From Christensenellaceae bacterium (GTDB lineage: Bacteria > Bacillota > Clostridia > Christensenellales > CAG-138), in assembly GCA_963665515.1 (NCBI GenBank), contig OY762278.1, positions 2,862,414 through 2,926,413 on the forward strand: 64,000 bases of DNA, written 5' to 3'. Within the stretch, counting starts at the first letter, position 1, and each line of letters opens with the position of its first letter. Below, in pieces: positions 5,628 to 22,659 of this stretch. The notes under the pieces are model-generated. The model was not told the DNA's origin. It ran no database searches and was given only the letters and a program-made list of their open reading frames with translations. Position numbers and translations under genes: made by a program.

Positions 5628-6320
5628 TTACGCCTTACGCGGGTCGATCACCTTGGCCGCCTGGTCAAAGCGTCCGTAGGTGCCGATGTTCTGTTCGTAC
5701 GCTTCCTTGGGATCGACGCCCTTCTTGATGGCGTCCATCATCTTGCCAAGGCTGACGAACTTGTATCCGATGATTTCGCTGTTATCGTCCAGGCCGATTT
5801 CAATAACGTAACCTTCAGCCATTTCCAGATAACGCGCGCCTTTCAGTTTCGTGCCGTACATGGTTCCAATCTGGGAACGCAGGCCTTTGCCGAGGTCTTC
5901 AAGGCCGGCGCCGATGGGAAGTCCGCCTTCGGAGAACGCGCTCTGCGAACGTCCGTAAGCAATCTGTAAAAACAGCTCGCGCATTGCGGTGTTGATCGCG
6001 TCACACACGAGGTCCGTGTTCAGCGCTTCGAGGATCGTCTTGCCCGGCAGAATTTCGGACGCCATCGCTGCGGAGTGCGTCATGCCGCTGCAGCCAAGCG
6101 TTTCGACGAGCGCTTCTTCAATAATACCCTCTTTAATATTCAGCGTAAGCTTGCATGCGCCCTGCTGCGGTGCGCACCAGCCGACGCCATGCGTCATGCC
6201 GCTGATATCGGTGATTTGTTTCGCTTTGACCCATGCGCCCTCTTCAGGAATCGGAGCGGGATCATGCTTTGCGCCCTTACAGACGCATACCATCTCTTCC
6301 ACTTCTGGTGAATATTGCAT
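5628..6320 (-). CDS. NifU/IscU-N-terminal-like iron-sulfur scaffold-related protein
   Basis: Start reassigned to MQYSPEV (ATG at 6318-6320) because an AGGAGG RBS lies at 6329-6335. Cys-containing blocks VGWCAPQQGAC and LGCSGMTHSA. Confidence 0.65.
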   Translation of the reverse strand: MQYSPEVEEMVCVCKGAKHDPAPIPEEGAWVKAKQITDISGMTHGVGWCAPQQGACKLTLNIKEGIIEEALVETLGCSGMTHSAAMASEILPGKTILEALNTDLVCDAINTAMRELFLQIAYGRSQSAFSEGGLPIGAGLEDLGKGLRSQIGTMYGTKLKGARYLEMAEGYVIEIGLDDNSEIIGYKFVSLGKMMDAIKKGVDPKEAYEQNIGTYGRFDQAAKVIDPRKA

Positions 6321-6512
6321 ATGTGGAATTCCTCCTTCATTTATTAACAGATTCCAAATTGTTTCACGATATAGTATAACACTGGCTATTTCAAGTTTCA
6401 ATATTAAAATGTCTTGTTTTTTCAGTACTAATTATCCTCTTTTGCCACTGTGTTTGCATTTTTAGCAATCGTATGATATAGATAGGATATATTATTTGCG
6501 GAGGTTTAGAGA

Positions 6513-7040
6513 ATGAGTAAAAAACGAATATCTGATAAAAAAGTTGTCTTAAAAATAGCCAAAATTCTTATTGGACGTTTGAAGAACTTTTCACTTCCGG
6601 CAGATATGGATGCAGATGCTGCAATCCGTTCGATTATCGAAGAAAAGGCGTATCCGCTGATTACCTACGGTGATTTGGCAGCGGAATTGAACGAGGCCTT
6701 CGATTTAAAAGATTCATCGCAAAAATTCACCGCTTTGATGATCGACGATTTTCTCGGTATCCTCCTAAAAGAATCTATTCGATATGAATATAGCATCCCC
6801 TGCGTCGTTCACAACGGCAGCATCAGAAAGAAATTTGGACGCGATATCCCAATCACTGCAATTGTCGTAAACGATAAAAAACATGTGCCCGGAAGAAAGT
6901 TTTATTCTTGTTTTAATCTGCCGCATGCAAACGATTTGGAGCGCAGCGAGGCCGCTGTTCAGCTTATGAAGCAAATCTTTACTTTCAAAGACTGGAAGGG
7001 TTATACGGCAAAAGTTAAAAAAGTTTTTGATGATAAATAA
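6513..7040 (+). CDS. Hypothetical protein (175 aa) in an AT-rich pocket
   Basis: ORF with a GGAGG RBS 8 nt upstream. No family recognised with confidence. ITYGDLAAEL ... IPCVVHNG is only faintly reminiscent of MGMT/ATL-type DNA-binding domains. Confidence 0.55.
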   Translation: MSKKRISDKKVVLKIAKILIGRLKNFSLPADMDADAAIRSIIEEKAYPLITYGDLAAELNEAFDLKDSSQKFTALMIDDFLGILLKESIRYEYSIPCVVHNGSIRKKFGRDIPITAIVVNDKKHVPGRKFYSCFNLPHANDLERSEAAVQLMKQIFTFKDWKGYTAKVKKVFDDK

Positions 7041-7137
7041 CCTCCCATCTGCTTTTTCAAGAAAAAACATATACTCATTTTTAGCCGCCGGTTTTTTATA
7101 ACCGGCGGTCTTATACTATGCTATACTAATAGAGCAG

Positions 7138-7809
7138 ATGTTTATGGGGGTATTCAGGTTGAAATACTTTTTTCTTACGTTTTATATTATCGTTGTTGCC
7201 GTGCATCTTTACTCTTGTGTCCGCACGGGTCGGCACACACTTAGAAAGATCACCAAGTGTCTCTTAATGCCGCTTCTTGCGCTCTGCTATCGCCTGTTTG
7301 CGGTTAATTTTTCCAACCTGGTTTTCCTTGCGCTCATCTTCGGTTTTATTGGGGATGCATTTTTACTCGCGCCAAGATGGAACTGGTCGTTCGGCGCGGG
7401 ACTTGGTGCTTTTGCCGTTGGCCACGTCCTCTATATCATCTACATGATCGGTGCTTTACCAGCCGCACCGACATGGTATATGCTCGTTTTACTTGCATTG
7501 ATTTGCTGCATGTTGTCGCTGATTGCGCTTCGTTATCTTTGGGACGGGTTACCGCCGGTGCTTCGCGCCCCCTGTATATTCTATATGCTCGATATTTCGT
7601 TTATGGCGTGCTGTGCATTTTTGTACGCATTCTCAGGGCTTTCCGGTCTTGCACCGTTTGCGGCGCTTGGCGGCATATTGTTCATCGTATCCGACACAAC
7701 GCTTTCGATCGATACTTTTAAAGCCCCGGTGCCGCATCGATATATTATCGTTATGGGAACCTACATTGCCGCACAAACGCTTCTGACACTTGCGTTTGTT
7801 CTGAGCTAA
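7138..7809 (+). CDS. YhhN-family (lysoplasmalogenase-like) integral membrane protein
   Basis: 223 aa, ~7 TM helices. FGFIGDAFLL and FAVGHVLY blocks are typical of YhhN. The start codon is uncertain (weak RBS; an in-frame TTG a few codons downstream is possible). Confidence 0.65.
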   Translation: MFMGVFRLKYFFLTFYIIVVAVHLYSCVRTGRHTLRKITKCLLMPLLALCYRLFAVNFSNLVFLALIFGFIGDAFLLAPRWNWSFGAGLGAFAVGHVLYIIYMIGALPAAPTWYMLVLLALICCMLSLIALRYLWDGLPPVLRAPCIFYMLDISFMACCAFLYAFSGLSGLAPFAALGGILFIVSDTTLSIDTFKAPVPHRYIIVMGTYIAAQTLLTLAFVLS

Positions 7810-9558: not shown

Positions 9559-10383
9559 TCACAGGTTCACTACGCTTCCGCTCATCAGCGGTTGCAGCCG
9601 GTCCCCCATGATTTCTTTTAATATCCGGTACGGTCCGGGGCCTGTGCAATGTCCGGTGTAAAAAACCGCGCCGGTCTTCTTCAGCGCCTCGCCAACTTTC
9701 AGGACTTGCTCCGGCGATTCGCTCTTCTTCGAGGTCGGGTTGTGCAGATGGAATCCGCCGATTACAACGTTCATTGGCTTTCCGGTCAATTCGCGTGCGC
9801 GACGGACGATATTGACAATGCCACAGTGCGCGCAGCCAGCAAGTAAAACATGCTTTCCGTTTTCCGTTAGAATCAAGTTCTGCTCGTGTACAAAGTCGTC
9901 TTCAAGCGTGACGCCGTTTCGTTCGGCTAGTAATACACGGTTGGACTCCGAGTAAAGCTCGCGTTCAGTCACGTTGGAAAATAGTTCAATTCCGCTTGCA
10001 ATGCGCTCGTACTCACCCGTCCAAATAAGCCTGCCGCTTTGCAGATACGTCAAATCGAGCCCAATATCGTCCTTTTTCCCGTTTGCGCGCAGTACAAGAT
10101 GCTTGTCGAACGCTTGCTTGCGAACATATACCATTGCCTTTTGATTTTCGCGCAAAAACGCGTACAGTCCACCGCCATGATCATAATGCCCGTGGGAAAC
10201 GACCGCAAATTCAATCTCAGAAAGATCAACCCCCATCGCTTTTGCGTTTTTAAGGAACAGATCGGTCTTTCCCATGTCAAAGAGCAGTTTCCTACTGTTC
10301 GATTCCACATACAAACTCAATCCGTGTTCGGAAGCGATATTTCCAGAAAGCGTGGTGTCTTCAACAAGCGCTTTGATCAGCAT
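9559..10383 (-). CDS. MBL-fold metallo-hydrolase
   Basis: 274 aa with the HGHYDHGGGL metallo-beta-lactamase motif. Confidence 0.75.
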   Translation of the reverse strand: MLIKALVEDTTLSGNIASEHGLSLYVESNSRKLLFDMGKTDLFLKNAKAMGVDLSEIEFAVVSHGHYDHGGGLYAFLRENQKAMVYVRKQAFDKHLVLRANGKKDDIGLDLTYLQSGRLIWTGEYERIASGIELFSNVTERELYSESNRVLLAERNGVTLEDDFVHEQNLILTENGKHVLLAGCAHCGIVNIVRRARELTGKPMNVVIGGFHLHNPTSKKSESPEQVLKVGEALKKTGAVFYTGHCTGPGPYRILKEIMGDRLQPLMSGSVVNL

Positions 10384-12917: not shown

Positions 12918-13190
12918 TTATTCGTTTTCGCTTTCCAGGCTCTTGTTGACAGCAGCAAGCTGCTGCTCAAGCATCTGCTTCTGGTCGGCGAGCATTGCGC
13001 GGCGCGTTTGTGCGCCTGGCTGTGCGGCAAAATTGCGATATCCGCAGCCACGGTTGCAGCCACGGCCCCGGCGCATGCCCATGCCAAACGGTGCGGCGTT
13101 TGCTGTTGCGTTTGTGCCAAAGCATCCGCCCATTCCTCTTCCGGTTCCCGCTCCGGTACCCATTGGGCCGGTTCCATCTCTGTACGGCAT
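12918..13190 (-). CDS. DUF5320-family small Gly/Arg-rich protein with a C-terminal coiled coil
   Basis: 90 aa. MPYRDGTGPMGTGAGTGRGMGGC start and the LEQQLAAVNKSLE tail match my recollection of DUF5320 proteins. AGGAGG RBS. Confidence 0.75.
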   Translation of the reverse strand: MPYRDGTGPMGTGAGTGRGMGGCFGTNATANAAPFGMGMRRGRGCNRGCGYRNFAAQPGAQTRRAMLADQKQMLEQQLAAVNKSLESENE

Positions 13191-13211
13191 TGTGTTTTCA
13201 CCTCCTTGCGG

Positions 13212-13269
13212 TTATTGACATATGTCGCTTACGATTTCATTATACATGGTTTCCGTCATATGTCAATAA
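13212..13269. repeat. Perfect 13-bp inverted repeat TTATTGACATATG / CATATGTCAATAA bracketing that promoter (candidate operator)
   Basis: Arms at 13212-13224 and 13257-13269 with a 32-bp spacer. One arm contains the -35 hexamer; the other lies at about +8 to +20 of the predicted transcript. Confidence 0.8.
13239..13266 (-). promoter_or_regulatory. Near-consensus sigma-70 promoter of the DUF5320 operon (TTGACA-16-TATAAT)
   Basis: Minus strand: -35 TTGACA (13261-13266), 16-nt spacer, -10 TATAAT (13239-13244), about 50 nt upstream of the DUF5320 ATG. Confidence 0.7.
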
Positions 13270-13377
13270 TAAAAGCAAAAGAATTTATTACTATTCTTCA
13301 TTAGTCCCAAATAATAGAATCCCGGGCTCTCGCCCGGGATCATTAGCTCTTTTCAATACCGAAGCTAATATTTTTGA

Positions 13378-13905
13378 CTATAGCGCTATCCAATACCGCT
13401 CCAGCGTATCGTCCGCTTTTTCGTAATACACTGTGTTTTCATAAACGCCGCCGCAGGATAAAATCGTCCGTCGGCTGCCTTCGTTTTCAACCGTGCATGT
13501 GATTAGTATCCGATCAAGCCCGAATTTCCGGCAAACATCCATGCACGCCGTCAGCATTTTCTTCGCGTATCCCTTTCTGCGTTCACTTGGGCGGACGGAA
13601 TAGCCGATGTTACCGCCGAACTGCCGCAAAAAATCGTTGAAGGAATGCCGAAATTGTATCATGCCGAGAATTCTACCGTCATTCTCGCGAACAAATGCAA
13701 ACTGCTCGGAAACAACCCAATTATCAGGTTTGGTTTGTTCATCCTCTGCAAGGCGGTTGAATTCCAGCCATTCGAATGGGTCTTCCAGGCGCCGCAGCGG
13801 TCCGGTTCCATCCATAGACGAATCGGTTTCCAAAAATTCTCTTCGATAAGACGCAATCTCCGCGGACATCGATTTGTCCGGTTTGATAAGCCTGTATGAC
13901 TCCAT
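13378..13905 (-). CDS. GNAT-family N-acetyltransferase
   Basis: 175 aa. RRKGYAKKML acetyl-CoA-binding (R/Q-x-x-G-x-A/G) motif. Confidence 0.75.
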   Translation of the reverse strand: MESYRLIKPDKSMSAEIASYRREFLETDSSMDGTGPLRRLEDPFEWLEFNRLAEDEQTKPDNWVVSEQFAFVRENDGRILGMIQFRHSFNDFLRQFGGNIGYSVRPSERRKGYAKKMLTACMDVCRKFGLDRILITCTVENEGSRRTILSCGGVYENTVYYEKADDTLERYWIAL

Positions 13906-13918
13906 AAAAGGTTCCTCA

Positions 13919-14404
13919 TTAACCGTGATTGAACTGTAAGTGGTCCGAACCTAAGAAGACTGCTCCTTCCGATTCCAAAAGGTCATAGAACCTCTCTTTT
14001 ACAATTTTCGGGAGCAGGTTCAGATTTGCTACGTTCAAAAGTTCGATCCACTCGCTGGCAATTTGTAAGTCGTCCGTTTCACTCGGCTCCACCGTGTCGT
14101 TTGACGCGAGTCTGCACAGGAAAATATGCAGCATCTTGTGTGCATACTGCGGATATTCATCACGGAATTTCGGGCTTTCGTTGATCTCCTCAAACAGCGC
14201 CACAAACCGCTCCGGTACGACGGAGTAGCCTGTTTCTTCCAAACATTCCCTGCGGATTGCCTGATCGAGCGTTTCATACGTCTCCTGCCCGCCACCCGGC
14301 AGAGAATAGTAATCGCCATTCAGCCTGTCATGACAGCGATTGAGTAACACCTTGCCATCGTTTACAACAATCAATTTTACCGTGCTTCTTACGCCAATTT
14401 CCAT
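13919..14404 (-). CDS. NUDIX hydrolase
   Basis: 161 aa with Nudix box GGGQETYETLDQAIRRECLEETG. Confidence 0.85.
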   Translation of the reverse strand: MEIGVRSTVKLIVVNDGKVLLNRCHDRLNGDYYSLPGGGQETYETLDQAIRRECLEETGYSVVPERFVALFEEINESPKFRDEYPQYAHKMLHIFLCRLASNDTVEPSETDDLQIASEWIELLNVANLNLLPKIVKERFYDLLESEGAVFLGSDHLQFNHG

Positions 14405-14482
14405 TTCGTCTCTCCAACGCTCCGTTTACCGGCCATCCGGCAATTATTTGCCATCATAGCACATATAGATATGCGATTCAAA

Positions 14483-15367
14483 TCAATAAACGCCATCGAC
14501 GTCCTTTGGCAAACGGCAAACGTGCGTACAGAATTCTCTACTGTTTTTCGCCTCGATCTCATCATAGCAAAATCCGAGTTCTTCCGACAAATACGTCGCC
14601 GTTTCGTTAAACAAATCACACATGGTAAATACAGCTTGCCAGATTTCGTCCGTCCTTGCCCGAGGATATGTTTCCATCAGACGCTCCCATGATTTCTTCG
14701 GAAGCCACCTGTACAGATATTTGCCCGATTTGCCGATATTTACCGAAAAGTTCGTCTCCGATCCGACGCGCCAGCCGAGCATGCGAATCAATTCCGGACG
14801 CACAACGCAATTAAGCATGTCCATCACGTATGGCAATTCGTTTCGCCACAAGCCTTTTGCAACATTGTTCAAGCACCACCAGAACTCGTTGCAAGACGCC
14901 AGAAACGCTGTTTCACCCGGTTGCTTAACCCAATATGCCTTGTCGGATGTACAATCGCCTTTCGGCAAGCAATCGCACTTGTCCAGCAATACACGGTATG
15001 GTTCACCGCTAATAAGCGCCTTTGCTGCGTAACTTTGCGTGACAACATGCAAATCCATTCGAACGCCGTCGTTAAACTGCATGAGCCAACCGTAACAGTT
15101 CTCCCTGTCGTGCGGATATTGATCGCCGTCTTCCGGATACTGCATATAAAGCCGTTCGCCAAAGCGGTCGATCCAGTCATGCTCGCGAATGAACGTTGCG
15201 GTTTCTCGCACAATATATACAACGTCGTAATACTGAAAGATGTCCTTCGGAGCGTTCGAGTTTGCTCTGGAACCTTCCAGGTATGCACCGAGGATGCGAT
15301 CGTCCGCCTTTGCCGTCGATAAAATCAATTCCATCATTTCACGCTCCGAGCGCATGTTTGCATTCAT
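14483..15367 (-). CDS. Aminoglycoside 6-nucleotidyltransferase, ANT(6)/AadK-like
   Basis: 294 aa. MRSEREMMELIL..DDRI....LEGSR.N...P.D.FQ.YD..Y.V and later CNEFWW / VRPEL.RML.W blocks closely parallel B. subtilis AadK as I recall it. The true start may be the internal MRSERE (15355). Confidence 0.8.
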   Translation of the reverse strand: MNANMRSEREMMELILSTAKADDRILGAYLEGSRANSNAPKDIFQYYDVVYIVRETATFIREHDWIDRFGERLYMQYPEDGDQYPHDRENCYGWLMQFNDGVRMDLHVVTQSYAAKALISGEPYRVLLDKCDCLPKGDCTSDKAYWVKQPGETAFLASCNEFWWCLNNVAKGLWRNELPYVMDMLNCVVRPELIRMLGWRVGSETNFSVNIGKSGKYLYRWLPKKSWERLMETYPRARTDEIWQAVFTMCDLFNETATYLSEELGFCYDEIEAKNSREFCTHVCRLPKDVDGVY

Positions 15368-15436
15368 CCCCTTATCATAGCTATGTTTCGCAAATCATTA
15401 TCACGTCAATGATAGCGGTTGGCAATGGTAGCCAAA

Positions 15437-15877
15437 TCAGGTGTCGATTCTTTTCATCTCCGTTAGCGCCTTATTTCGATAATTCAAGTCCGTCCGTATC
15501 GAGAATCCCCTGCGCTCCCAGAAAATGTTTCCGGTGTCGTTCCTGCCAAAAACAACAAGCGCTGCTTTATGGATGCCCTCGCACTGCAAGGCTTGGATCG
15601 CGGCGTCGACCAGCGCGGAGCCAATGCCGCAATTTTGCCTGTCGAGTGCCACCGCCGTATGGTAAATATAGCCGCGCCGTCCGTCATGTCCGGCTAATAT
15701 GGCTCCAACAATTTTGCCGTCCACGGCCGCAACAAAACAAGTGCTCGGGTTCCTGAACAGGTATCTTTGGATTCCATCCCTCGAATCGTCAATGTTGTTG
15801 AGTCCCATTCCGGGTGTCGACATCCAAAGTTGATAGATCTTTTCGTAATCGTCTATCGTTAGTTTTCTAATCTCCAT
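15437..15877 (-). CDS. GNAT-family N-acetyltransferase
   Basis: Start set to MEIRKLT (ATG 15875-15877) behind a GGAGA RBS. QNCGIGSALV acetyl-CoA motif. Confidence 0.75.
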   Translation of the reverse strand: MEIRKLTIDDYEKIYQLWMSTPGMGLNNIDDSRDGIQRYLFRNPSTCFVAAVDGKIVGAILAGHDGRRGYIYHTAVALDRQNCGIGSALVDAAIQALQCEGIHKAALVVFGRNDTGNIFWERRGFSIRTDLNYRNKALTEMKRIDT

Positions 15878-15976
15878 ATGCCGGTCTCCATGAAACAAGT
15901 TTGCTTTCACATCGTATCGTATAAAGCGCATCATATCAATACCAATGAGCGATGCATCCTATATGAATTCACTATA

Positions 15977-16010
15977 GAAAAAACACACCCTTCGATAATG
16001 GAAGGATGTG
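15977..16010 (-). terminator. Intrinsic terminator closing the LRR-kinase gene cluster
   Basis: 10-bp stem (15984-15993 / 16001-16010) whose only mismatch is a G.U wobble in the minus-strand RNA, followed by U6. Confidence 0.8.
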
Positions 16011-16175
16011 CTTCGTTTGGTGGAACATTTGCACCCATATGTAAACCCCTATGTCTTTCTTGGCGGGTTTGGGATGACGGTGTCTTTAATCTATAATTCT
16101 GAAAATACTGAAAATTCACACAAAATAAAAGTTGCTACCCGATAATCTGTTTGAAAATCACTTAATATTGTTAAA

Positions 16176-17807
16176 TTATGATGTATACCGTATCGTAAAC
16201 ACCGTATCTGTCAGTGTAGTCTCAGCCGCGTCCTGGAGTGTTTCATCCAGACGCACTTCTTTCAGCTGCGGCAATGCCAAAAGCGGGGCAAGGTCGTCAT
16301 CCGCAACATTTGAAAGTTCAATCACTTTTAAATTCCCAAATGCTTCTATCCCGGCGAGCGTTTGCAGCGGCGTTTCGCGCATATAAAGCTCCCGTATGCT
16401 GATCAGCCCATCCAGCGCCTGGAAAGATGTGACCCAGGTTTTGCCTATGTCTACGTTTTCCAGCATTTTACAGCCAGAAAGCGCAGACAAATCTGAAACA
16501 TGCGTCTCAAACAAAGAAAGCAGTTTCAAAGCAGGCAGCGTCGCCAGTGGCGAGATATCTTCCAGCGGGTTGTGCCTAAGATCGACTGTTTCCAGCGAGC
16601 GGAGCCCGGAAAGCGCTGAAATGTCCGTTAAATCTTGTAGCGCGATACGTACCGTTTTCAGATTTTTTAATTGTGCAAGATCGTCCAGAGACGACAGCCC
16701 ACCGTTTTTAAGAACACCGTCGTTTAGCGCCATGTGTGCGCCCAGCTCATCAAAAGATGGCGAATCTGCCACAGCCTGATCGCCGTATATATAAATCTCC
16801 GTCACATTGAGCAAATCCAATTCCGTAATCGGTTCGTTACCATCCTTGCCCAGAGACAATCGAATCGCCTGCTCAATCAGCGGTTCTTCAAATCGCACAC
16901 CGTTTTTTACGTATGGCAACGACGCGTTCGTATAGCGGCCAATCACAAAACCGGCGCAAAGGCATGCGACGCAGGTCAAAACGCCGCAAGTCAAGCGTGC
17001 GGCAAGTTTTTGTTTGTGGCCATCCGCGTTAAGAAGTTCCTTTTTTACCTGCATAACCGATCGGTAACGTTTATCCGGCGCAAAGGCCGTACATCTTTTA
17101 ACAATCCGTCTTAGACGGCAATTTTTAATGTTTTCACAGATGTTTCTGCGTTCAAAGTTGTTTGTCAGCATCCACCCAAGTAAAACGCCAAGCGAAAAAA
17201 TGTCCGCCGTCGTATCTGTCTGGGCAAACCCGTACTGTTCCGGCGGCGCGAAGTCTTTTGTGCCGAAACAGACCGTATCTCCATCTGCATCCTTGTCATA
17301 GGTGCGTGAAATTCCGAAATCAATGAGGTGCAGTCCGTCCTTATCATCCACAATGAGGTTTTGCGGCTTAATATCGCGATGGATGACCGGTGGCGTCTGC
17401 GCATGCAGATAGGCGAGGATATCACATAGCTTAACAGCAAAGCAGACGGCTTGTTGCTCGTTCAGCGGGTGCTTTACGGCATAGCGATCAAGCGGCGTAC
17501 CTTTTACATATTCTCGCACTACACACAACATGCGATCATTTTCAAATCGGCCTTCATACCGCGGCAGTCCCGGGTGGTTTAAATTTTTTAAAATATCCGC
17601 TTCCGTTGCATGCGAAAGCAATGTCTTGTCGGTATAACACTTCGCAATAAAATGCTCGCGTGTAATCCTGTTTTTCACGAGAAGAGTTACGTCCGTCCGC
17701 TCCGGTGTCAAGCATTCAAGCGCTTCATACTCGCTGATAAAACCATCGGGATACTGTGCGCTGTCGCTGTCCGCTAAAATGCTTTCAATGTATGCGTCGT
17801 CCATCAC
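16176..17807 (-). CDS. Membrane Ser/Thr protein kinase: N-terminal Hanks-type kinase domain, one TM helix, C-terminal leucine-rich-repeat ectodomain
   Basis: 543 aa. FIAK (catalytic Lys), HRDIKPQN, DFG, APPE. Hydrophobic segment at about residues 269-291. C-terminal LRRs (LxxLxxLxLxxNxLxDISxL). The start overlaps the upstream HTH gene's stop by 4 nt. Confidence 0.85.
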   Translation of the reverse strand: MMDDAYIESILADSDSAQYPDGFISEYEALECLTPERTDVTLLVKNRITREHFIAKCYTDKTLLSHATEADILKNLNHPGLPRYEGRFENDRMLCVVREYVKGTPLDRYAVKHPLNEQQAVCFAVKLCDILAYLHAQTPPVIHRDIKPQNLIVDDKDGLHLIDFGISRTYDKDADGDTVCFGTKDFAPPEQYGFAQTDTTADIFSLGVLLGWMLTNNFERRNICENIKNCRLRRIVKRCTAFAPDKRYRSVMQVKKELLNADGHKQKLAARLTCGVLTCVACLCAGFVIGRYTNASLPYVKNGVRFEEPLIEQAIRLSLGKDGNEPITELDLLNVTEIYIYGDQAVADSPSFDELGAHMALNDGVLKNGGLSSLDDLAQLKNLKTVRIALQDLTDISALSGLRSLETVDLRHNPLEDISPLATLPALKLLSLFETHVSDLSALSGCKMLENVDIGKTWVTSFQALDGLISIRELYMRETPLQTLAGIEAFGNLKVIELSNVADDDLAPLLALPQLKEVRLDETLQDAAETTLTDTVFTIRYTS

Positions 17808-18253
17808 GCGTCCTCTCCGCCAAGCGGTGTTAACCCCATTCGGTGCAACAGATCCTGTGTTTCACTAAAAGGCTTTCGGTCGTGCAGGCACCGCAGGATT
17901 GCGGCGTCTCTCACAATGCGCGGATAGAGCGGACTCATTCTTGCAGCTTTAAGCAGCTCCTGCGTTTCCTCATCGTCCAGACCGAAGCCAAACGAAAGCT
18001 GCAGGAGCTTATCGCGCGACGGCTTGCGCGTTCCATTAAAAATCTGATGCAGATATGTGCGGTCTATGTTGCAGCGGGTCACAATTTCCGCCGGAGAAAG
18101 CCCGGAAGCGCGGCGCAACCCTGTGAGGTATTCGTTGATCTGCGTTGAAACAAACAAGTCGGAGTTTTCATTTACAAAATCTTCGACGTTGGGCGCTTTA
18201 AACAACCGCCGCTGAAGCGTTGCGGTTATGCGGTCCGTTTTAATTTGTGCCAC
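17804..18253 (-). CDS. XRE-type helix-turn-helix protein (HTH-B), translationally coupled to the kinase
   Basis: 149 aa. LSPAEIVTRCNIDRTYLHQIFNGTRKPSRDKLLQLSFGFGL HTH block. Paralog of 18376..18798. Confidence 0.75.
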   Translation of the reverse strand: MAQIKTDRITATLQRRLFKAPNVEDFVNENSDLFVSTQINEYLTGLRRASGLSPAEIVTRCNIDRTYLHQIFNGTRKPSRDKLLQLSFGFGLDDEETQELLKAARMSPLYPRIVRDAAILRCLHDRKPFSETQDLLHRMGLTPLGGEDA

Positions 18254-18375
18254 TCTCCCGTGTCTCCTTTGTCTGTAATATTACTACCATTATAAGTGCC
18301 TTTTTCAAAAGAGACAAGGAGGTTTCAGAGCTTACCGGTTCTTGATCACAAATATCAACACCGCTGTACTGTGCT

Positions 18376-18798
18376 TCAACTCCCCAGCGTTTGCATTCCA
18401 TAGCTTTCAAGCAGTCCTTGCGTCTGTTCAATGTCGAATTCATGTAAAACAGCGTAAAGAATAGCTGCGTCTCGTCGAATTTGAGGGACAAGCCGCCCGT
18501 TGCGCGACACATCCAGCAGTTCCTGAGTTTGATCCAAATTGAGACCAAAACCGAAGGCAAGTTGTATAACTTTGTCTCTGGACGGCATACGCGTGCCGTT
18601 AAAAAGCTGGTGACCATACGTACGGTTTATACCCGCACACTTAATGATATGCGCTCGTGTTTCGTTCCGTTCAGCACACATCCGCACGATATATTCGTGG
18701 AACGGCGGCGGCGGTACGTCTTTTTTCATGTAACTGTCCAGCGTACCGGTATGCAGTTGTTTCAGCAGGTATTCTGTGTTCCTATTGTGATCATTCAT
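18376..18798 (-). CDS. XRE-type helix-turn-helix protein (HTH-A), paralog of HTH-B
   Basis: Start taken as ATG 18796-18798 (MNDHNRN); the ORF-track start at 18822 is a GTG. Shares NRTYGHQLFNGTRMPSRDKVIQLAFGFGL and RRDAAIL with HTH-B. Confidence 0.7.
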   Translation of the reverse strand: MNDHNRNTEYLLKQLHTGTLDSYMKKDVPPPPFHEYIVRMCAERNETRAHIIKCAGINRTYGHQLFNGTRMPSRDKVIQLAFGFGLNLDQTQELLDVSRNGRLVPQIRRDAAILYAVLHEFDIEQTQGLLESYGMQTLGS

Positions 18799-18851
18799 GA
18801 TTGATTCCCTTAATATTCGCACATGTCCGCACCGCCGCCATATCTTGTGAT

Positions 18852-20942
18852 TTAGCTTTCAAAAGGTAAATTGTAAAGATCGACAACACTCATGCCAAAG
18901 GTTTTCTCAGTAAATTTAACCATCAGATCTACAGGGTATAAGTATATATCCGTAATGCTAGGATTATTGATAGCGATGGTAAAGTATTCTTCTACAGTAA
19001 GTCCATCGCTGCCGCACCAGCCGTCGATGTGTTCGCTTGTATCAACAAAGAACTCATACGAAGCGCCGCTTCCGTTGTTATCGTCTGCCTTTACAAGGAA
19101 TTTTCCTTCGTCATTGAAATAAGTCACAACAACACGGTATTCTTCGCTAAAAGGTGTAAAAAACCTGACGTCGCCGCCTTCATCCCAGTCCCCCCATTCC
19201 GGATTGTAAATCTGAACGGAATAATACTGTTCGGAATGTGATTCATACAAATACGACGCCGTACTCTCATCGGCAAAAAAGCCCAACCCGCTCAACGAGG
19301 ATTTGTCGGCTTCGTTTCCTCCCATGGACAGCGTAAAAATTTCATCCGCGGTCATGCAGAAAACGCTTTCCAGAGCATCGTTATATAAAGCGATCGGTGC
19401 AAAAAGCACATCCTCCGAATCCGTTTCTCCAAGTGTGGCGTTTACCGCGGACTCCACACTTTGTCTATCTTCCGTTTCAAACGTAAATGCCTCGTTTGCC
19501 TGATCATAAAAATAGTTCGCTAAAATTTCGGCGTCTCTGCTTATACCAAAAGCATACGTCTGACTGTCCGGATAGTAGCCAACAATCAGGCGATTGCCGC
19601 TGTCCGTTAGCCAATATATCGTTATGGCGTCCACTTCCAATTCAAGACCTTCCGGTGTTTCACCCCACGCGGTGTGATTGATTGCTATGGACATCGTGTC
19701 ATCACCGTAATTGGCTATATGCGCGTTATCGTCCATCACAAATCCCAGTTCCGCAAGCGAGGACGCAGATGCATCGGCCTTTTCCCTTGGCAAATTATAC
19801 AGTATGTCGGCCGAAGCGCTAAAGGTGTCCGTTAAAACTTTGCTGAAATCTTTGATCGGCGTCAGCACAGGATACGGATCAACCTCGTCATACGCTACGC
19901 TCATAAACGCATCAACATCTCCTCTGCTATACTCCATATCTATTTGTTCGTTTTGGGTATCATATGTGTATCGGAAGTCTTGCGTGTTACTGGTCACGAG
20001 ATAGCTCCTGTTTTCAGGATAGTAAATGATTATGATCTCGTTTTCGGCCCCATAATTCTTGCACAGTTTGACCGCGTTTATATCATCACGATTCTCCAGC
20101 TCTCCCCACTCCGCATGATGCACCTGTACGATTATTTCGTCGGATTTGTAACTTTCCACCTGCGGTTGGTTGTCAATCGGAGCAAATCCCAACTCGCGAA
20201 GCGACGACACGATTGCGAAGTCAGCCTCTTCAAGATTCGGGTATATATTTGCGAGCGGCGAATAATCGGTAATTGGACATCCTTCCAGCTGCAGCTTTTT
20301 GAGATTAACCAAGCCCGCAAGCGGCGAAACGTCGCTCACCGAAGTGTTTGACAAGCCAAGCCACCATAACTGGGTTAAGCCGGAAAGCATACTCGCGTCG
20401 CTGATCGTTGAATGATCCATCAAAAGTCCGCCCAACATGGTCAGGTTTGCAAGAGGTGTGTAGTCCTGTGCCTGACAGTTAAACAGTGTCAGCCAGCCAA
20501 GATTTGTTAATCCCGACAGGGGCGTTATGTCCGCAATTGGATTCCCACCGAGACTGAGGGAGTGGAGTTTTGTAAGCCCGGCGAGCGGCGTTATGTCGGT
20601 GACGGCATGAAAATGCAATTCAAGGTTTTCGAGGTTTGTAAAATACTCTAATCCGCTGAGGTCCGTGATGATCGTTCCTTCTTCCGGTTCACTCGGCGTG
20701 TAATCCGTGCTCAGCCGTAGTTCCGTCACAGCTTCCGCTTCAGAAATGGTGATGTCTCCCTCCGGTTTGTTCATTGCCTCGCGCACGCGCGATTCCAGAA
20801 CGGGATCGGCAAACGCAACAATTTCCGGCGATTCCTGTTCCGGTCCGGACGTTGTTTCCGTATCCGTCGCGGCAGGATTGGCACATGCCGCCAGCATAAC
20901 CGCAAACATGACTGCCACCATCAAACACAGTGTCTTTTTCAT
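18852..20942 (-). CDS. Surface lipoprotein with an N-terminal internalin-like LRR domain and three tandem copies of an unassigned ~150-aa domain
   Basis: 696 aa. Signal peptide plus lipobox (VMLAAC). LRRs such as LENLELHFHAVTDITPLAGLTKLHSLSLGGNPIADITPLSGLTNL. GGAGGAGG RBS. Confidence 0.8.
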   Translation of the reverse strand: MKKTLCLMVAVMFAVMLAACANPAATDTETTSGPEQESPEIVAFADPVLESRVREAMNKPEGDITISEAEAVTELRLSTDYTPSEPEEGTIITDLSGLEYFTNLENLELHFHAVTDITPLAGLTKLHSLSLGGNPIADITPLSGLTNLGWLTLFNCQAQDYTPLANLTMLGGLLMDHSTISDASMLSGLTQLWWLGLSNTSVSDVSPLAGLVNLKKLQLEGCPITDYSPLANIYPNLEEADFAIVSSLRELGFAPIDNQPQVESYKSDEIIVQVHHAEWGELENRDDINAVKLCKNYGAENEIIIIYYPENRSYLVTSNTQDFRYTYDTQNEQIDMEYSRGDVDAFMSVAYDEVDPYPVLTPIKDFSKVLTDTFSASADILYNLPREKADASASSLAELGFVMDDNAHIANYGDDTMSIAINHTAWGETPEGLELEVDAITIYWLTDSGNRLIVGYYPDSQTYAFGISRDAEILANYFYDQANEAFTFETEDRQSVESAVNATLGETDSEDVLFAPIALYNDALESVFCMTADEIFTLSMGGNEADKSSLSGLGFFADESTASYLYESHSEQYYSVQIYNPEWGDWDEGGDVRFFTPFSEEYRVVVTYFNDEGKFLVKADDNNGSGASYEFFVDTSEHIDGWCGSDGLTVEEYFTIAINNPSITDIYLYPVDLMVKFTEKTFGMSVVDLYNLPFES
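18855..20207 (-). repeat. Three tandem protein-level repeats (residues ~246-393, 394-547, 548-696) within the lipoprotein
   Basis: Each unit starts SSL(R/A/S)(E/G)LGF, has an aromatic-rich core with (A/P)(E/W)WG(E/D), and ends ...(D/E)(I/L)(L/F/Y).L(P/S). Divergent at the DNA level. Confidence 0.7.
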
Positions 20943-21254
20943 AATGCCTCCTCCATTTATTACAGGTTTATTTCATTGTTTATGACAAAAAGAATAGACG
21001 TTTGTAGCTGAAGCTCACCGGTATGTATATGGGCGTAATATCCCTGTTTGTCTGATCGAAACCTTTCTTTTGTTTGCATCGGTTAAATTGTATTGGTTGG
21101 TGTATGAATTTATCAGAGAATGTCAGGAGAGCGCTCATTTTAAAATTATACTAACACGTCTGGCAGCGGATATGGTGTGCAGCCTGCATACATTTTCGAA
21201 TTTCGAACAGGCCCTGGCAGCTGACTTACCTTAGCGTTGTAGCGACATTTTGGT

Positions 21255-21291
21255 GCTTATTCAGCCCCGAAATGTCGGGGCAGCTTTTTTT
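21255..21291 (+). terminator. Orphan plus-strand intrinsic terminator inside the 630-bp non-coding region
   Basis: Stem GCCCCGA / TCGGGGC (21264-21281), extendable by GCT/AGC, followed by T7 on the + strand. No + strand ORF of 60 aa or more precedes it. Confidence 0.6.
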
Positions 21292-21546
21292 AATCTTTTA
21301 CGTTTACCAAAATTCCCTGCTGGCGTTGTTTCTTTGGGGGCTAGATTTAGATTGGTGAAAAGAATAAGAATTTTGACGCGCGATCAAATGTAAATATCGA
21401 CAATAGTTTGACAATCAAGTTTTGCGATGTGTATAGGAAAGTTTGTCCTCATAGTAACAACATTGTCTTCTTTTGGGCTGGCAAGCGTATTATTATTCCA
21501 ATACGAAGCACATTAAAGTCAAATATTCAATTCGCAAATAGTCCAT

Positions 21547-21577
21547 ATAAAAAAAGGCTCTGACAATTGTCAGAGCC
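21547..21577 (-). terminator. Intrinsic terminator immediately 3' of tRNA-Ala
   Basis: Perfect 22-nt palindrome GGCTCTGACAATTGTCAGAGCC (21556-21577) followed on the minus strand by U7. Confidence 0.85.
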
Positions 21578-21653
21578 TGGTGGAGCATGGGGGATTCGAA
21601 CCCCCGACCTCAACATTGCGAACGTTGCGCGCTACCAACTGTGCTAATGCCCC
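21578..21653 (-). tRNA. tRNA-Ala (anticodon CGC), CCA encoded
   Basis: Minus strand reads GGGGCATTAGCACAGTTGGTAGCGCGCAACGTTCGCAATGTTGAGGTCGGGGGTTCGAATCCCCCATGCTCCACCA. It has a 7-bp acceptor stem with the Ala-identity G3:U70 pair, anticodon loop TTCGCAA, and T-loop GGTTCGAATCC. Confidence 0.9.
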
Positions 21654-21801
21654 AAGCCGCTTGATTATGATACAACAAGCCCTATCAAAATGCAAGGGCT
21701 TTTCATCAAAAACTTCGATATGATTTTCGCCATAGTTTTGGATACACAAAGAAGACGCACGGGCGTCTAAAATCGTCATAAAGCCGTCGATTCGTCATAG
21801 A

Positions 21802-22659
21802 TTATCTTCGACCACGGTCGTTTGTCGGGCGAAGCACCTGCATATGCGGGCGGCTATCGTGCTGCGATGCTTCGTTCTTAGGGTCCTCGCCATTGCGCAA
21901 CTGATTGATCAATGCATATGCTTCTGCAAACGTATCTGCAAGGCGGTCCGCTATCTGCGGCGGTATACTTGCCTGCTGCGGCGGCTCAGGAGACTGTTGC
22001 CTTACATATGTCTCGCGTACCGGCGTATGATCGCTCTCAGCGCGGCCTTCTACCGTCGCCATGTATGCATAGTTCCTCGCCTCGTCGCGCTCGGCAGTCA
22101 GGCGCATACTTTCCGCACGCAGTCGGCTGATCTCTTCGCGCATATGCGCGTTTTCGTCCACAAGATGTGCGCGCTCCTTTTTCCATGTCTCTCCGACGCT
22201 GGCTGCCTGAGACAGCGCGTTTCTTAGTTGCTGAACCTCGCGCTCAAGCGTCTGCACGCGTTCGTTTGCCACACGAACGCCGTCCACCGCGCCACGCAAC
22301 CGTTCATAACCTTGCCGCTCGCTCTCGTACTTTTTAATATGCGTAAGCAGCGTAGCGATCTTTTCACCCGCAGCGTTCAATTCAGCTTCTTTTTGTGAAA
22401 TTGTTTCTTTAAGCGTATTCACCGCACAGTTGCGCGCTTCGACTTCGCTTTTAATGGATTCAATCTGATCAAGCAGGGATTCCTGCTCCTGCCTTGCCGC
22501 CTTCGTCTGCTGGGCGGAAGCCATCTTCATTTCATCCAGGCATTCGCGCACTTCATCCGGGTCGTAGCCGTGCAGCACGCGGTGAAAGCGCGCGTCCGCA
22601 TCCATGCGGCTGCGCAGCGCGTCCACGCCTCTATTTCGGTTGTCCCGTTCGCTGCCCAT
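21802..22659 (-). CDS. DivIVA-domain coiled-coil protein
   Basis: 285 aa. N-terminal F.RVLHGYDPDEVRECLDEM matches the DivIVA-type F..x.RGYdxxEVdxFL motif, followed by a long heptad-rich region. The start overlaps the DUF192 stop (TAATG). Confidence 0.65.
   Translation of the reverse strand: MGSERDNRNRGVDALRSRMDADARFHRVLHGYDPDEVRECLDEMKMASAQQTKAARQEQESLLDQIESIKSEVEARNCAVNTLKETISQKEAELNAAGEKIATLLTHIKKYESERQGYERLRGAVDGVRVANERVQTLEREVQQLRNALSQAASVGETWKKERAHLVDENAHMREEISRLRAESMRLTAERDEARNYAYMATVEGRAESDHTPVRETYVRQQSPEPPQQASIPPQIADRLADTFAEAYALINQLRNGEDPKNEASQHDSRPHMQVLRPTNDRGRR

Follow-up and report, generated by a model that had tools for sequence, protein, structure and literature searches.

Four genes on the minus strand, at positions 16176–20942 of a 64,000-nucleotide stretch from the genome of a Christensenellaceae bacterium (contig OY762278.1; the whole stretch is called the window hereafter), encode a leucine-rich repeat (LRR) lipoprotein, two small helix-turn-helix (HTH) proteins of the XRE type, designated HTH-A and HTH-B, and a membrane-spanning Hanks-type Ser/Thr kinase with a C-terminal LRR domain. 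On balance, the cluster is probably a receptor Ser/Thr kinase paired with an XRE-fold regulator resembling class II activators, the operon of the LRR lipoprotein and HTH-A being its regulated target. The evidence consists of the gene structure and domain content, the conserved linkage between the genes, the geometry of a palindromic operator with respect to a promoter, and the nature of the genes lying behind that operator.

Among the sensors of bacterial Hanks kinases, it is chiefly those of the PASTA type that are known. To our knowledge, most bacterial Hanks kinases have neither a known cognate transcription factor nor a defined DNA target, and we know of almost nothing on how gut and rumen Clostridia perceive their environment or alter their cell surface. 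In the present case, the full chain—LRR sensor, kinase, XRE regulator with a candidate phosphosite, 17-bp operator and surface-lipoprotein target—can be predicted from the sequence alone. If true, this would add a pathway that resembles two-component systems but relies on Ser/Thr phosphorylation, and the targets of which would be readable in thousands of uncultured genomes. A preliminary description of the cluster, prepared from the DNA letters, was aware of no characterized example; the literature search likewise yielded no publication describing a pair of an XRE protein and a Hanks kinase, or a transmembrane LRR kinase of bacteria, and a preprint presenting an atlas of bacterial Ser/Thr kinases makes no mention of LRR, XRE or HTH neighbours.

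Conservation of the cassette and of the HTH–kinase linkage

Nine orthologous loci with full flanks, the window included, were examined. The HTH-B orthologue abuts or overlaps the start of the kinase gene in all nine of them, and a gene for an LRR lipoprotein is adjacent in eight, being placed upstream and co-directionally in the window, L081 and L089, divergently in L083, L084, L091 and L092, and downstream in L085; the ninth locus, L090, has a non-LRR lipoprotein gene downstream. The four-gene order of the window is repeated exactly in L089. Since the flanking genes vary in every orthologous locus, the cassette itself is the conserved unit. Independent occurrence of the genes in related genomes was not seen, the linkage holding in every orthologous locus, and the conserved neighbourhood supports the earlier view of the four genes as a functional unit, at the centre of which stands a Hanks-type kinase spanning the membrane and exposing its LRR domain to the outside.

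Kinase loci were gathered with the generic peptides IHRDIKP and PEQYG, which gave 80 kinases among the matches listed, approximately 41 of them relevant. All the collected loci were scanned with a profile built for the HTH family. Among the matches listed, the HTH family (E = 1e-13 to 1e-73) adjoins 35 of the 41 related kinases—originating from Clostridia, Oscillospiraceae, Lachnospiraceae, Christensenella, Erysipelotrichaceae, Olsenella/Coriobacteriaceae (Coriobacteriia) and Anaerolineales—and none of the 39 remote ones, which come from Acidobacteriota, Cyanobacteria and Myxococcota or represent other kinases of Lachnospiraceae. Two loci approached through the HTH protein (L093 and L095) contain the pair as well, as does each of the three matches obtained among 2.9 million viral contigs. 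Nearly all the paired kinases are anchored in the membrane by one hydrophobic segment directly following the catalytic domain, their ectodomains being variable, i.e. either LRR or without any Pfam match. Judged from these comparisons, the conserved core is the HTH protein plus the kinase, and the linkage, seen in both the related kinase loci and every orthologous locus, makes it likely that the HTH proteins are the outputs of the kinase, as had been proposed for the window.

Predicted operator, promoters and target genes

When the sequences preceding HTH-B were compared among the orthologous loci, a palindrome became apparent, first seen as GTRTGCA-N3-TGCAYAC, the family consensus of which is GTRTGC-N5-GCAYAC; a self-repeat search of the cluster had not revealed it. 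The motif was derived from five loci and then scanned in the window and the other loci. Its one match in the 64-kb window, GTATGCAGGCTGCACAC, is positioned upstream of the lipoprotein gene (Table 1), and it was further found in L003, L004, L008, L021, L025, L031, L089, L090, L093 and L095. Exact copies amount to 14 sites in 12 of the 47 loci containing the module (669 kb), compared with about 0.16 expected, and all 14 lie within or beside the module, whereas the 45 other loci (561 kb) yielded a sole match, in L024, beside a related kinase. Both L093 and L095, which were collected after the motif had been defined, have exact copies directly after the stop codon of the kinase gene.

Concerning the promoters, the −10 hexamer predicted for the lipoprotein/HTH-A operon is located exactly 21 nt downstream of the operator and is accompanied by no good −35 element. 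The pattern TAnnnT occurs at an offset of 21 nt in 28 of the 271 oriented candidate sites, against 0–13 at the other offsets from 15 to 29. The composite of operator, 21 nt and TAnnnT has a single match in the window (21148–21191) and none in 100 shuffles; across the 95 loci, 14 exact matches are found in 12, every one beside the module. A good −10 without a −35 places the centre of the operator near −42, i.e. the position typical for class II activators, among them lambda cI, itself of the XRE fold, when acting at PRM, and also the controller proteins of restriction-modification (R-M) systems. In the divergent arrangements, the −10 hexamer is on the side of the lipoprotein gene, not on that of HTH-B. 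The HTH-B/kinase operon possesses its own sigma-70-type promoter with no operator, canonical −35/−10 pairs being likewise present upstream of HTH-B in the orthologous loci. The co-occurrence of the conserved 17-bp palindrome with the HTH family, at a fixed promoter geometry, marks the palindrome as a putative XRE operator. Transcription from the predicted −10 would give the mRNA of the lipoprotein gene a 5′ untranslated region (UTR) of about 200 nt (20943–21147); an Rfam scan of 15900–21800 detected only the tRNA and no known leader RNA in this UTR.

The genes behind the composite sites almost always code for lipoproteins, secreted or membrane proteins. The predicted targets of the operator comprise LRR lipoproteins (the window, L081, L083, L084, L085, L089, L091 and L092), other lipoproteins (L003, L004, L031, L042 and L090), a PEGA/Big_2 protein of 1,326 amino acids (aa) in L081 and a 997-aa SLH surface protein in L095. 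The locus L081 carries two identical variant operators (GAATGCAGCCAGCATAC; 2747–2763 and 9651–9667), each with TATTAT at 21 nt, one preceding three LRR lipoprotein genes and the other located after the kinase gene and before that of the PEGA/Big_2 protein; to go by this arrangement, one module may control several surface-protein operons. In L084, the left half-site of the operator is degenerate (GCGGGCA).

HTH-A and HTH-B

HTH-B is recognized by the Pfam family HTH_31 (39.3 bits vs. a cut-off of 27), while HTH-A reaches no Pfam cut-off (HTH_19, 18.6 bits vs. 30.2) and matches the family profile with E = 3e-66. The two proteins, taken for paralogues in the preliminary description, do have in common the motifs NRTY.HQ.FNGTR.PSRDK..QL.FGFGL and RDAAIL given there; they are 37% identical, and their recognition helices are the same (NRTYGHQLFNG). 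The AlphaFold2 (AF2) model of HTH-B (predicted local distance difference test, pLDDT, 86.5) consists of nine helices with the XRE core at residues ~39–103. A Foldseek search with this model gave probability 1.0 and target TM-scores of 0.72–0.85 for C.Esp1396I, C.AhdI and the N-domain of DdrO, and the additional N- and C-terminal helices had no structural match; the sequence search of the PDB similarly gave weak matches to the XRE core only. The recognition helix begins with DR[TS]Y (DRTY), aligning with that of C.AhdI, and the C-terminal two-helix extension of HTH-B carries the motif LYPRIxRDAAIL.

Outside the HTH core, Thr10 is retained in 119 of the 125 family representatives (95%; ≤50% identity), a degree of conservation on a par with that of the core Gly, Arg and Asp residues; in the AF2 model it is situated at the start of helix 1. 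In L081, L085 and L089, the genes of the HTH-A orthologues (139–143 aa) follow directly on that of the long LRR lipoprotein, and in L093 one small gene, of 84 aa, intervenes between them. The HTH family as a whole counts 1,732 clusters at 50% identity (E ≤ 1e-10) and is spread through the Clostridia of gut and rumen. It includes tandem double-HTH members of 271–324 aa (P0373, P0387, P0388 and P0397) and a 358-aa HTH–Pkinase fusion (P0400), which could be either a true Rosetta-stone fusion or the outcome of a frameshift where the two genes overlap. Sigma70_r2 and Sigma70_r4 domains were not found by Pfam in the HTH partners. A covariation between a His/Tyr exchange in the recognition helix (YGHQ/YxYQ) and position 7 of the operator (A/T) was also considered and had to be dropped, L093 and L095 breaking the pattern.

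Receptor kinase

The catalytic domain belongs to the Pkinase family (PF00069; 109.5 bits vs. a cut-off of 31.7, E = 2.4e-31), the match beginning at profile position 21. It contains the motifs FIAK, HRDIKPQN, DFG and APPE, and in 21 orthologues sharing 48–77% identity the residues K55, E68, D144 (HRD), N149, D162 (DFG) and P188–E189, together with the activation segment GT…PPE, are invariant. The place of the Gly-rich loop is occupied by L-T-P-E-R-T-D-V in the window and by L-A-x5-E-T in the family. The N-terminal extension is conserved as well (RYPxxF).

Right after the catalytic domain there is a single hydrophobic segment, residues ~271–289 of the 542-aa form (nt 16938–16994) or 272–290 of the 543-aa one, followed by the C-terminal domain of internalin-type 22-residue repeats (LRR_4, 58.5 bits vs. 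a cut-off of 27). The repeat LxxLxxLxLxxNxIxDIxPL can be read directly in the translations of both the kinase and the lipoprotein, and the N-terminal region of the latter matches the kinases with E = 1e-13 to 1e-18, so that the LRR domains of the two are homologous. Given that catalysis depends on the ATP of the cytoplasm, that the kinase has a single transmembrane (TM) helix and that its ectodomain is related by homology to the LRR domain of a protein having a lipobox, the LRRs should be on the outer side of the membrane rather than in the cytoplasm. The features read from the window beforehand—a Hanks-type domain with the four motifs and without a GxGxxG loop, one TM helix and a C-terminal LRR domain of the same repeat type as in the lipoprotein—have all withstood the profile searches and the alignment. 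More than 100 orthologues of ~540 aa with the identical architecture were found, all in Clostridia-type genomes and metagenomes; the closest named relative by the kinase is Acetanaerobacterium elongatum (54% identity).

LRR lipoprotein

The description of the 696-aa product as a lipoprotein with internalin-like 22-residue LRRs likewise agrees with the analysis. Its signal peptide, MKKTLCLMVAVMFAVMLAAC, has the lipobox LAAC at residues 17–20, as read directly from the sequence and in agreement with the pattern [LVI][ASTVI][GAS]C, and the lipobox is retained in the orthologues. The N-terminal cap and about six 22-residue LRRs (LRR_4, 62.9 bits vs. a cut-off of 27) cover roughly residues 45–240, the similarity to the NCBIfam internalin profiles being below their cut-offs (105.8 vs. 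1600 bits for NF033189 and 103.7 vs. 1050 for NF033188). The remaining part, residues 236–696 (nt 18855–20237), is made of three tandem copies of a domain of ~150 aa, for which there is no Pfam family and for which the fold search against the PDB gave no significant match (TM-scores ~0.1). In the structure model of this part (pLDDT 85.8), each of the three repeats combines a 6–7-stranded β-sheet with three helices. Most homologues have two copies of the domain and a total length of ~540 aa. The domain is a candidate for a new family of extracellular domains. It should be mentioned that in L084 the long LRR lipoprotein gene (5674–7291) appears split into open reading frames (ORFs) of 302 aa and ~105–269 aa, which is probably due to a frameshift or to its being a pseudogene.

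Gene boundaries and flanking region

The coordinates of the individual features are summarized in Table 1; all four co-directional genes of the preliminary description are present in the list of ORFs at the places given there.

Table 1. Features of the gene cluster and its immediate surroundings in the window (gene positions according to the ORF list)
Feature	Position	Strand	Remarks
LRR lipoprotein ORF	18852–20942	minus	696 aa
HTH-A ORF, longest form	18376–18822	minus	148 aa from GTG
HTH-A, XRE-type paralogue	18376–18798	minus	140 aa from ATG at 18798; in predicted lipoprotein operon
HTH-B, XRE-type	17804–18253	minus	149 aa; N-terminal helix with Thr10, core ~39–103, C-terminal two-helix extension
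Kinase ORF, longest form	16176–17807	minus	543 aa
Receptor Ser/Thr kinase	16176–17804	minus	542 aa from ATG at 17804; Hanks-type domain ~25–262, TM, LRR ~300–542
Predicted operator	21175–21191	minus	17-bp palindrome; family consensus GTRTGC-N5-GCAYAC
Predicted −10 of lipoprotein/HTH-A promoter	21145–21153	minus	TAGTAT (21148–21153) overlapping TATAAT (21145–21150)
Sigma-70-type promoter of HTH-B/kinase operon	18289–18317	minus	TTGTCT, 17 nt, TATAAT; no operator
Intrinsic terminator closing the cluster	15973–16014	minus	14-bp stem (15980–16014) and U-run
Non-coding region upstream of lipoprotein gene	20943–21577		635 bp
tRNA-Ala(CGC)	21578–21653		upstream boundary of non-coding region; its terminator at 21555–21578

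The junction of HTH-B and the kinase gene reads GCG TGA TGG, in which an overlap of 4 nt (GTGA) arises only with a GTG start of the kinase, the ATG at 17804 overlapping the TGA of HTH-B by 1 nt (TGATG). The claim that the kinase ATG overlaps the HTH-B stop codon thus stands, while its length, given as 4 nt, does not. The database copy of the kinase has 542 aa and so uses the ATG start. As for HTH-A, the ATG at 18798 is preceded by a ribosome-binding site (AAGGGAA), and the resulting length of 140 aa matches orthologues of 139–140 aa, so that this is probably the true start.

Both ends of the cluster were found as described before: the non-coding stretch of ~630 bp upstream extends to the tRNA gene and its terminator, and the strong terminator downstream is real (−19.2 kcal/mol, z = −5.3, none of the 200 shuffles folding equally well). 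The latter was not caught by a simple terminator scan and was seen by comparing the folding with that of shuffled sequences. The cassette starts immediately downstream of the tRNA-Ala(CGC) gene and its neighbours vary among all the orthologous loci, which suggests that it moved as a unit or lies in a variable region. Within the 635-bp non-coding region there is a plus-strand terminator-like hairpin (21264–21281; GCCCCGAAATGTCGGGGC followed by a T-run), at which no plus-strand gene terminates; it could be a remnant or a part of a small antisense transcript. In addition, the self-repeat search of the cluster detected an 18-nt direct repeat (21386–21403 and 18869–18886; minus strand TTGTCGAT[A/C]TTTACA[T/A]TT), identical at 16 of 18 positions, about 0.4 such pairs being expected by chance; both copies overlap promoter-like matches, which in one case lie a long way ahead of the lipoprotein gene and in the other just before HTH-A.

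Downstream of the cluster, on the same strand (12918–15934), there are genes for a GNAT acetyltransferase, a streptomycin-type adenylyltransferase (PF04439, E = 5e-110), a NUDIX hydrolase, a second GNAT and a DUF5320 protein, which look like a small resistance or detoxification gene cluster. Upstream of the tRNA gene, the segment 22659–26357 probably represents a Tad/Flp-type pilus locus, with genes for a DUF192 protein, two membrane proteins of the T2SSF family (TadB/TadC-like) and a T2SSE ATPase. No Pfam match was obtained for the coiled-coil ORF of 285 aa at 21802–22659.

Proposed mechanism and alternative explanations

In the mechanism proposed here, HTH-B and the kinase would be co-produced, with translational coupling, from a promoter of the canonical constitutive type. 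The kinase would reside in the membrane with the catalytic domain inside and the LRR domain outside, where the latter would bind an extracellular ligand, and the binding would alter the kinase activity. HTH-B and HTH-A would both act as dimeric XRE-fold proteins recognizing GTRTGC-N5-GCAYAC, and the promoter having this operator near −42 would drive the LRR-lipoprotein/HTH-A operon, the regulator acting in the style of class II activators. Phosphorylation of HTH-B by the kinase, most likely at Thr10 in the N-terminal helix, would shift the occupancy of the operator or the recruitment of RNA polymerase and, in this way, the level of the LRR lipoprotein on the surface; phosphotransfer may perhaps extend to the HTH proteins in general, with Thr10 as the candidate site. 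Because HTH-A has the same recognition helix as HTH-B and would be induced together with the lipoprotein, it is expected to feed back on the same operator, with either sign. With regard to the preliminary description, which saw in the cluster a surface-sensing module with the two LRR proteins as co-receptor or ligand-presenting partners, the kinase as a receptor, the HTH proteins as outputs and the functional unity of the four genes are kept, while the role of the lipoprotein is changed to that of a regulated target, in view of the operator and the −10 hexamer 21 nt from it.

There are several points that speak against this proposal. Some of the loci in which the operator was picked by eye were later included in the counts, and many of the distant HTH–kinase loci have no operator match at ≤2 mismatches. 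Six of the related kinases lack a detectable HTH neighbour; for two of them the upstream sequence is missing, and one, in L024, has a weak HTH remnant and has kept the operator. Activation rather than repression is proposed from the promoter geometry only, no phosphatase or FHA partner is encoded within the cluster, and Thr10, to judge from the structure model, may be a simple helix N-cap. Finally, the alignment of the 21 orthologues shows GxGxxG in no member of the kinase family, and distant members of the clade are likewise without the Gly-rich loop; the whole clade could consist of weak kinases, or of scaffolds tethering the HTH protein instead of phosphorylating it.

If the lipoprotein paired with the kinase ectodomain in order to bind or present the ligand, in the manner of the co-receptors of plant LRR receptor-like kinases, the HTH proteins being plain phospho-substrates, the adjacency of its gene in eight of the nine orthologous loci would be accounted for, as would the N-cap and the 22-residue repeat type common to both proteins (E = 1e-13 to 1e-18). 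The operator is, however, followed by a non-LRR lipoprotein, an SLH or another surface protein in L090, L095, L003 and the distant loci, which means that the conserved relation is that of a regulator to its target gene and not that of one LRR protein to another; moreover, the HTH and operator logic is unchanged where the ectodomain of the kinase is not of the LRR type. As the principal explanation, a co-receptor appears rather unlikely; it is compatible with the mechanism proposed above, in which a regulated co-receptor would amount to positive feedback. The tethering just mentioned, according to which a pseudokinase domain would hold HTH-B at the membrane until the ligand releases it, similarly to membrane-bound anti-sigma factors, seems improbable. 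A stoichiometric complex is suggested by the translational coupling, the conserved RYPxxF extension could serve as a docking site and the lack of GxGxxG throughout the clade would be natural in a scaffold, but the invariance of the β3 Lys, αC Glu, HRD Asp, Asn, DFG Asp and GT…APE down to 48% identity would be unexpected for a pure scaffold, and the near-invariant Thr10 of the HTH family fits a phosphoacceptor.

The catalytic set is also what separates this clade from the atypical kinase CD2148 of Clostridioides difficile, which is reported to be devoid of the GT/SPE motifs as well as of the catalytic Asp and Asn (PMC9674922); CD2148 was rejected as a relative because the kinases studied here retain the catalytic Asp, Asn and GT/APE and so form a different family. 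A still different function would be that of an anti-phage or toxin–antitoxin system, in which the XRE protein represses or neutralizes a toxic kinase, as in HipB/HipA or in the PD-T4-6/Stk2-type systems. The order of the XRE and kinase genes with overlapping stop and start codons, the matches of the kinase domain to the PADLOC models PD-T4-6 and mad6, and the location at a tRNA gene with neighbours differing among genomes are in line with it. The NCBIfam scores of 67 bits vs. 460 for MADS6 and 35 vs. 990 for PglW of BREX, and likewise the PADLOC matches (residues ~44–270), however, reflect the generic catalytic domain only; the kinase crosses the membrane once and carries its sensor domain outside the cell, a HipA-type domain was not found by Pfam, the operator precedes the surface-protein genes instead of being at the HTH/kinase promoter, and the matches in viral contigs are just three. 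A function of this kind is therefore very improbable, the defence system having been rejected because the PADLOC scan gave generic kinase-domain and HTH matches only, and the HipBA-like toxin–antitoxin because there is no HipA fold and the kinase is a membrane receptor.

Taking the receptor kinase paired with an XRE activator as the preferred explanation, it may be suggested, still tentatively, that the cluster exemplifies a large and so far undescribed class of one-step transmembrane systems of anaerobic Gram-positive bacteria and some Chloroflexota. Such a system would comprise a receptor kinase devoid of the Gly-rich loop and with an interchangeable ectodomain, an XRE regulator phosphorylated on an N-terminal Thr and a class-II-type operator in front of an adjacent surface-protein gene, and could be viewed as a Ser/Thr-kinase counterpart of two-component systems, with a regulon predictable from sequence.

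Comparison with known systems

With two-component systems the likeness is one of logic only; neither a HisKA/HATPase_c sensor nor a REC domain was found by Pfam in the four proteins. The resemblance to HipB/HipA is confined, as anticipated in the preliminary description, to the XRE-type gene standing immediately before the Ser/Thr kinase gene: HipA is a cytosolic protein with another kinase fold, and the operators bound by HipB belong to its own promoter; nothing of this applies to the cluster. An extracellular LRR domain, one TM helix and a cytoplasmic kinase or signalling domain are shared with the LRR receptor-like kinases of plants and the Toll-like receptors of animals; the polarity is, however, opposite, the kinase being N-terminal and the LRRs C-terminal, with 22-residue repeats of the bacterial internalin type, so that a common origin of the architecture is not implied. 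With the class 1 internalins of Listeria, the LRRs share the 22-residue type and the N-terminal cap (NCBIfam matches internalin_A/H), although with scores far below the cut-offs, no match to the inter-repeat Ig-like domain and no LPXTG or GW anchor, the anchoring here being by a lipobox or a TM helix.

C proteins and lambda cI activate transcription by binding, as dimers, to a palindrome that overlaps a weak −35 or lies immediately before it. Both HTH proteins of the cluster resemble C.AhdI, C.Esp1396I and lambda cI in being small XRE/Cro-C1 HTH proteins, with DR[TS]Y in the recognition helix in the comparison with the controllers. The likeness covers the core only (20–26% identity, Foldseek E ~0.02); the present proteins have, in contrast, an extra N-terminal helix pair with the conserved Thr and a C-terminal two-helix extension, and are linked to a membrane kinase instead of an R-M system or a phage.

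The closest parallels in logic are the dedicated pairs of a Hanks kinase and a transcription factor, such as PknT–EcfP of Vibrio parahaemolyticus and PknH–EmbR of Mycobacterium tuberculosis. A further such pair is PknS–EcfK of Xanthomonas citri (PMC13147305). As in all three, a single-pass Hanks kinase is encoded beside one transcription factor, which it would control in a private, two-component-like manner, in contrast to a kinase with pleiotropic effects. Unlike in these pairs, the output has the XRE fold instead of being an ECF (extracytoplasmic function) sigma factor or an FHA–SARP regulator, the sensor is of the LRR type, the kinase to which phosphotransfer would fall has no Gly-rich loop, and the hosts are anaerobic Bacillota and relatives. 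The logic of the pair is therefore already known, what is new in comparison with the known kinase/transcription-factor pairs being the XRE output, the LRR sensor and the kinase subtype.

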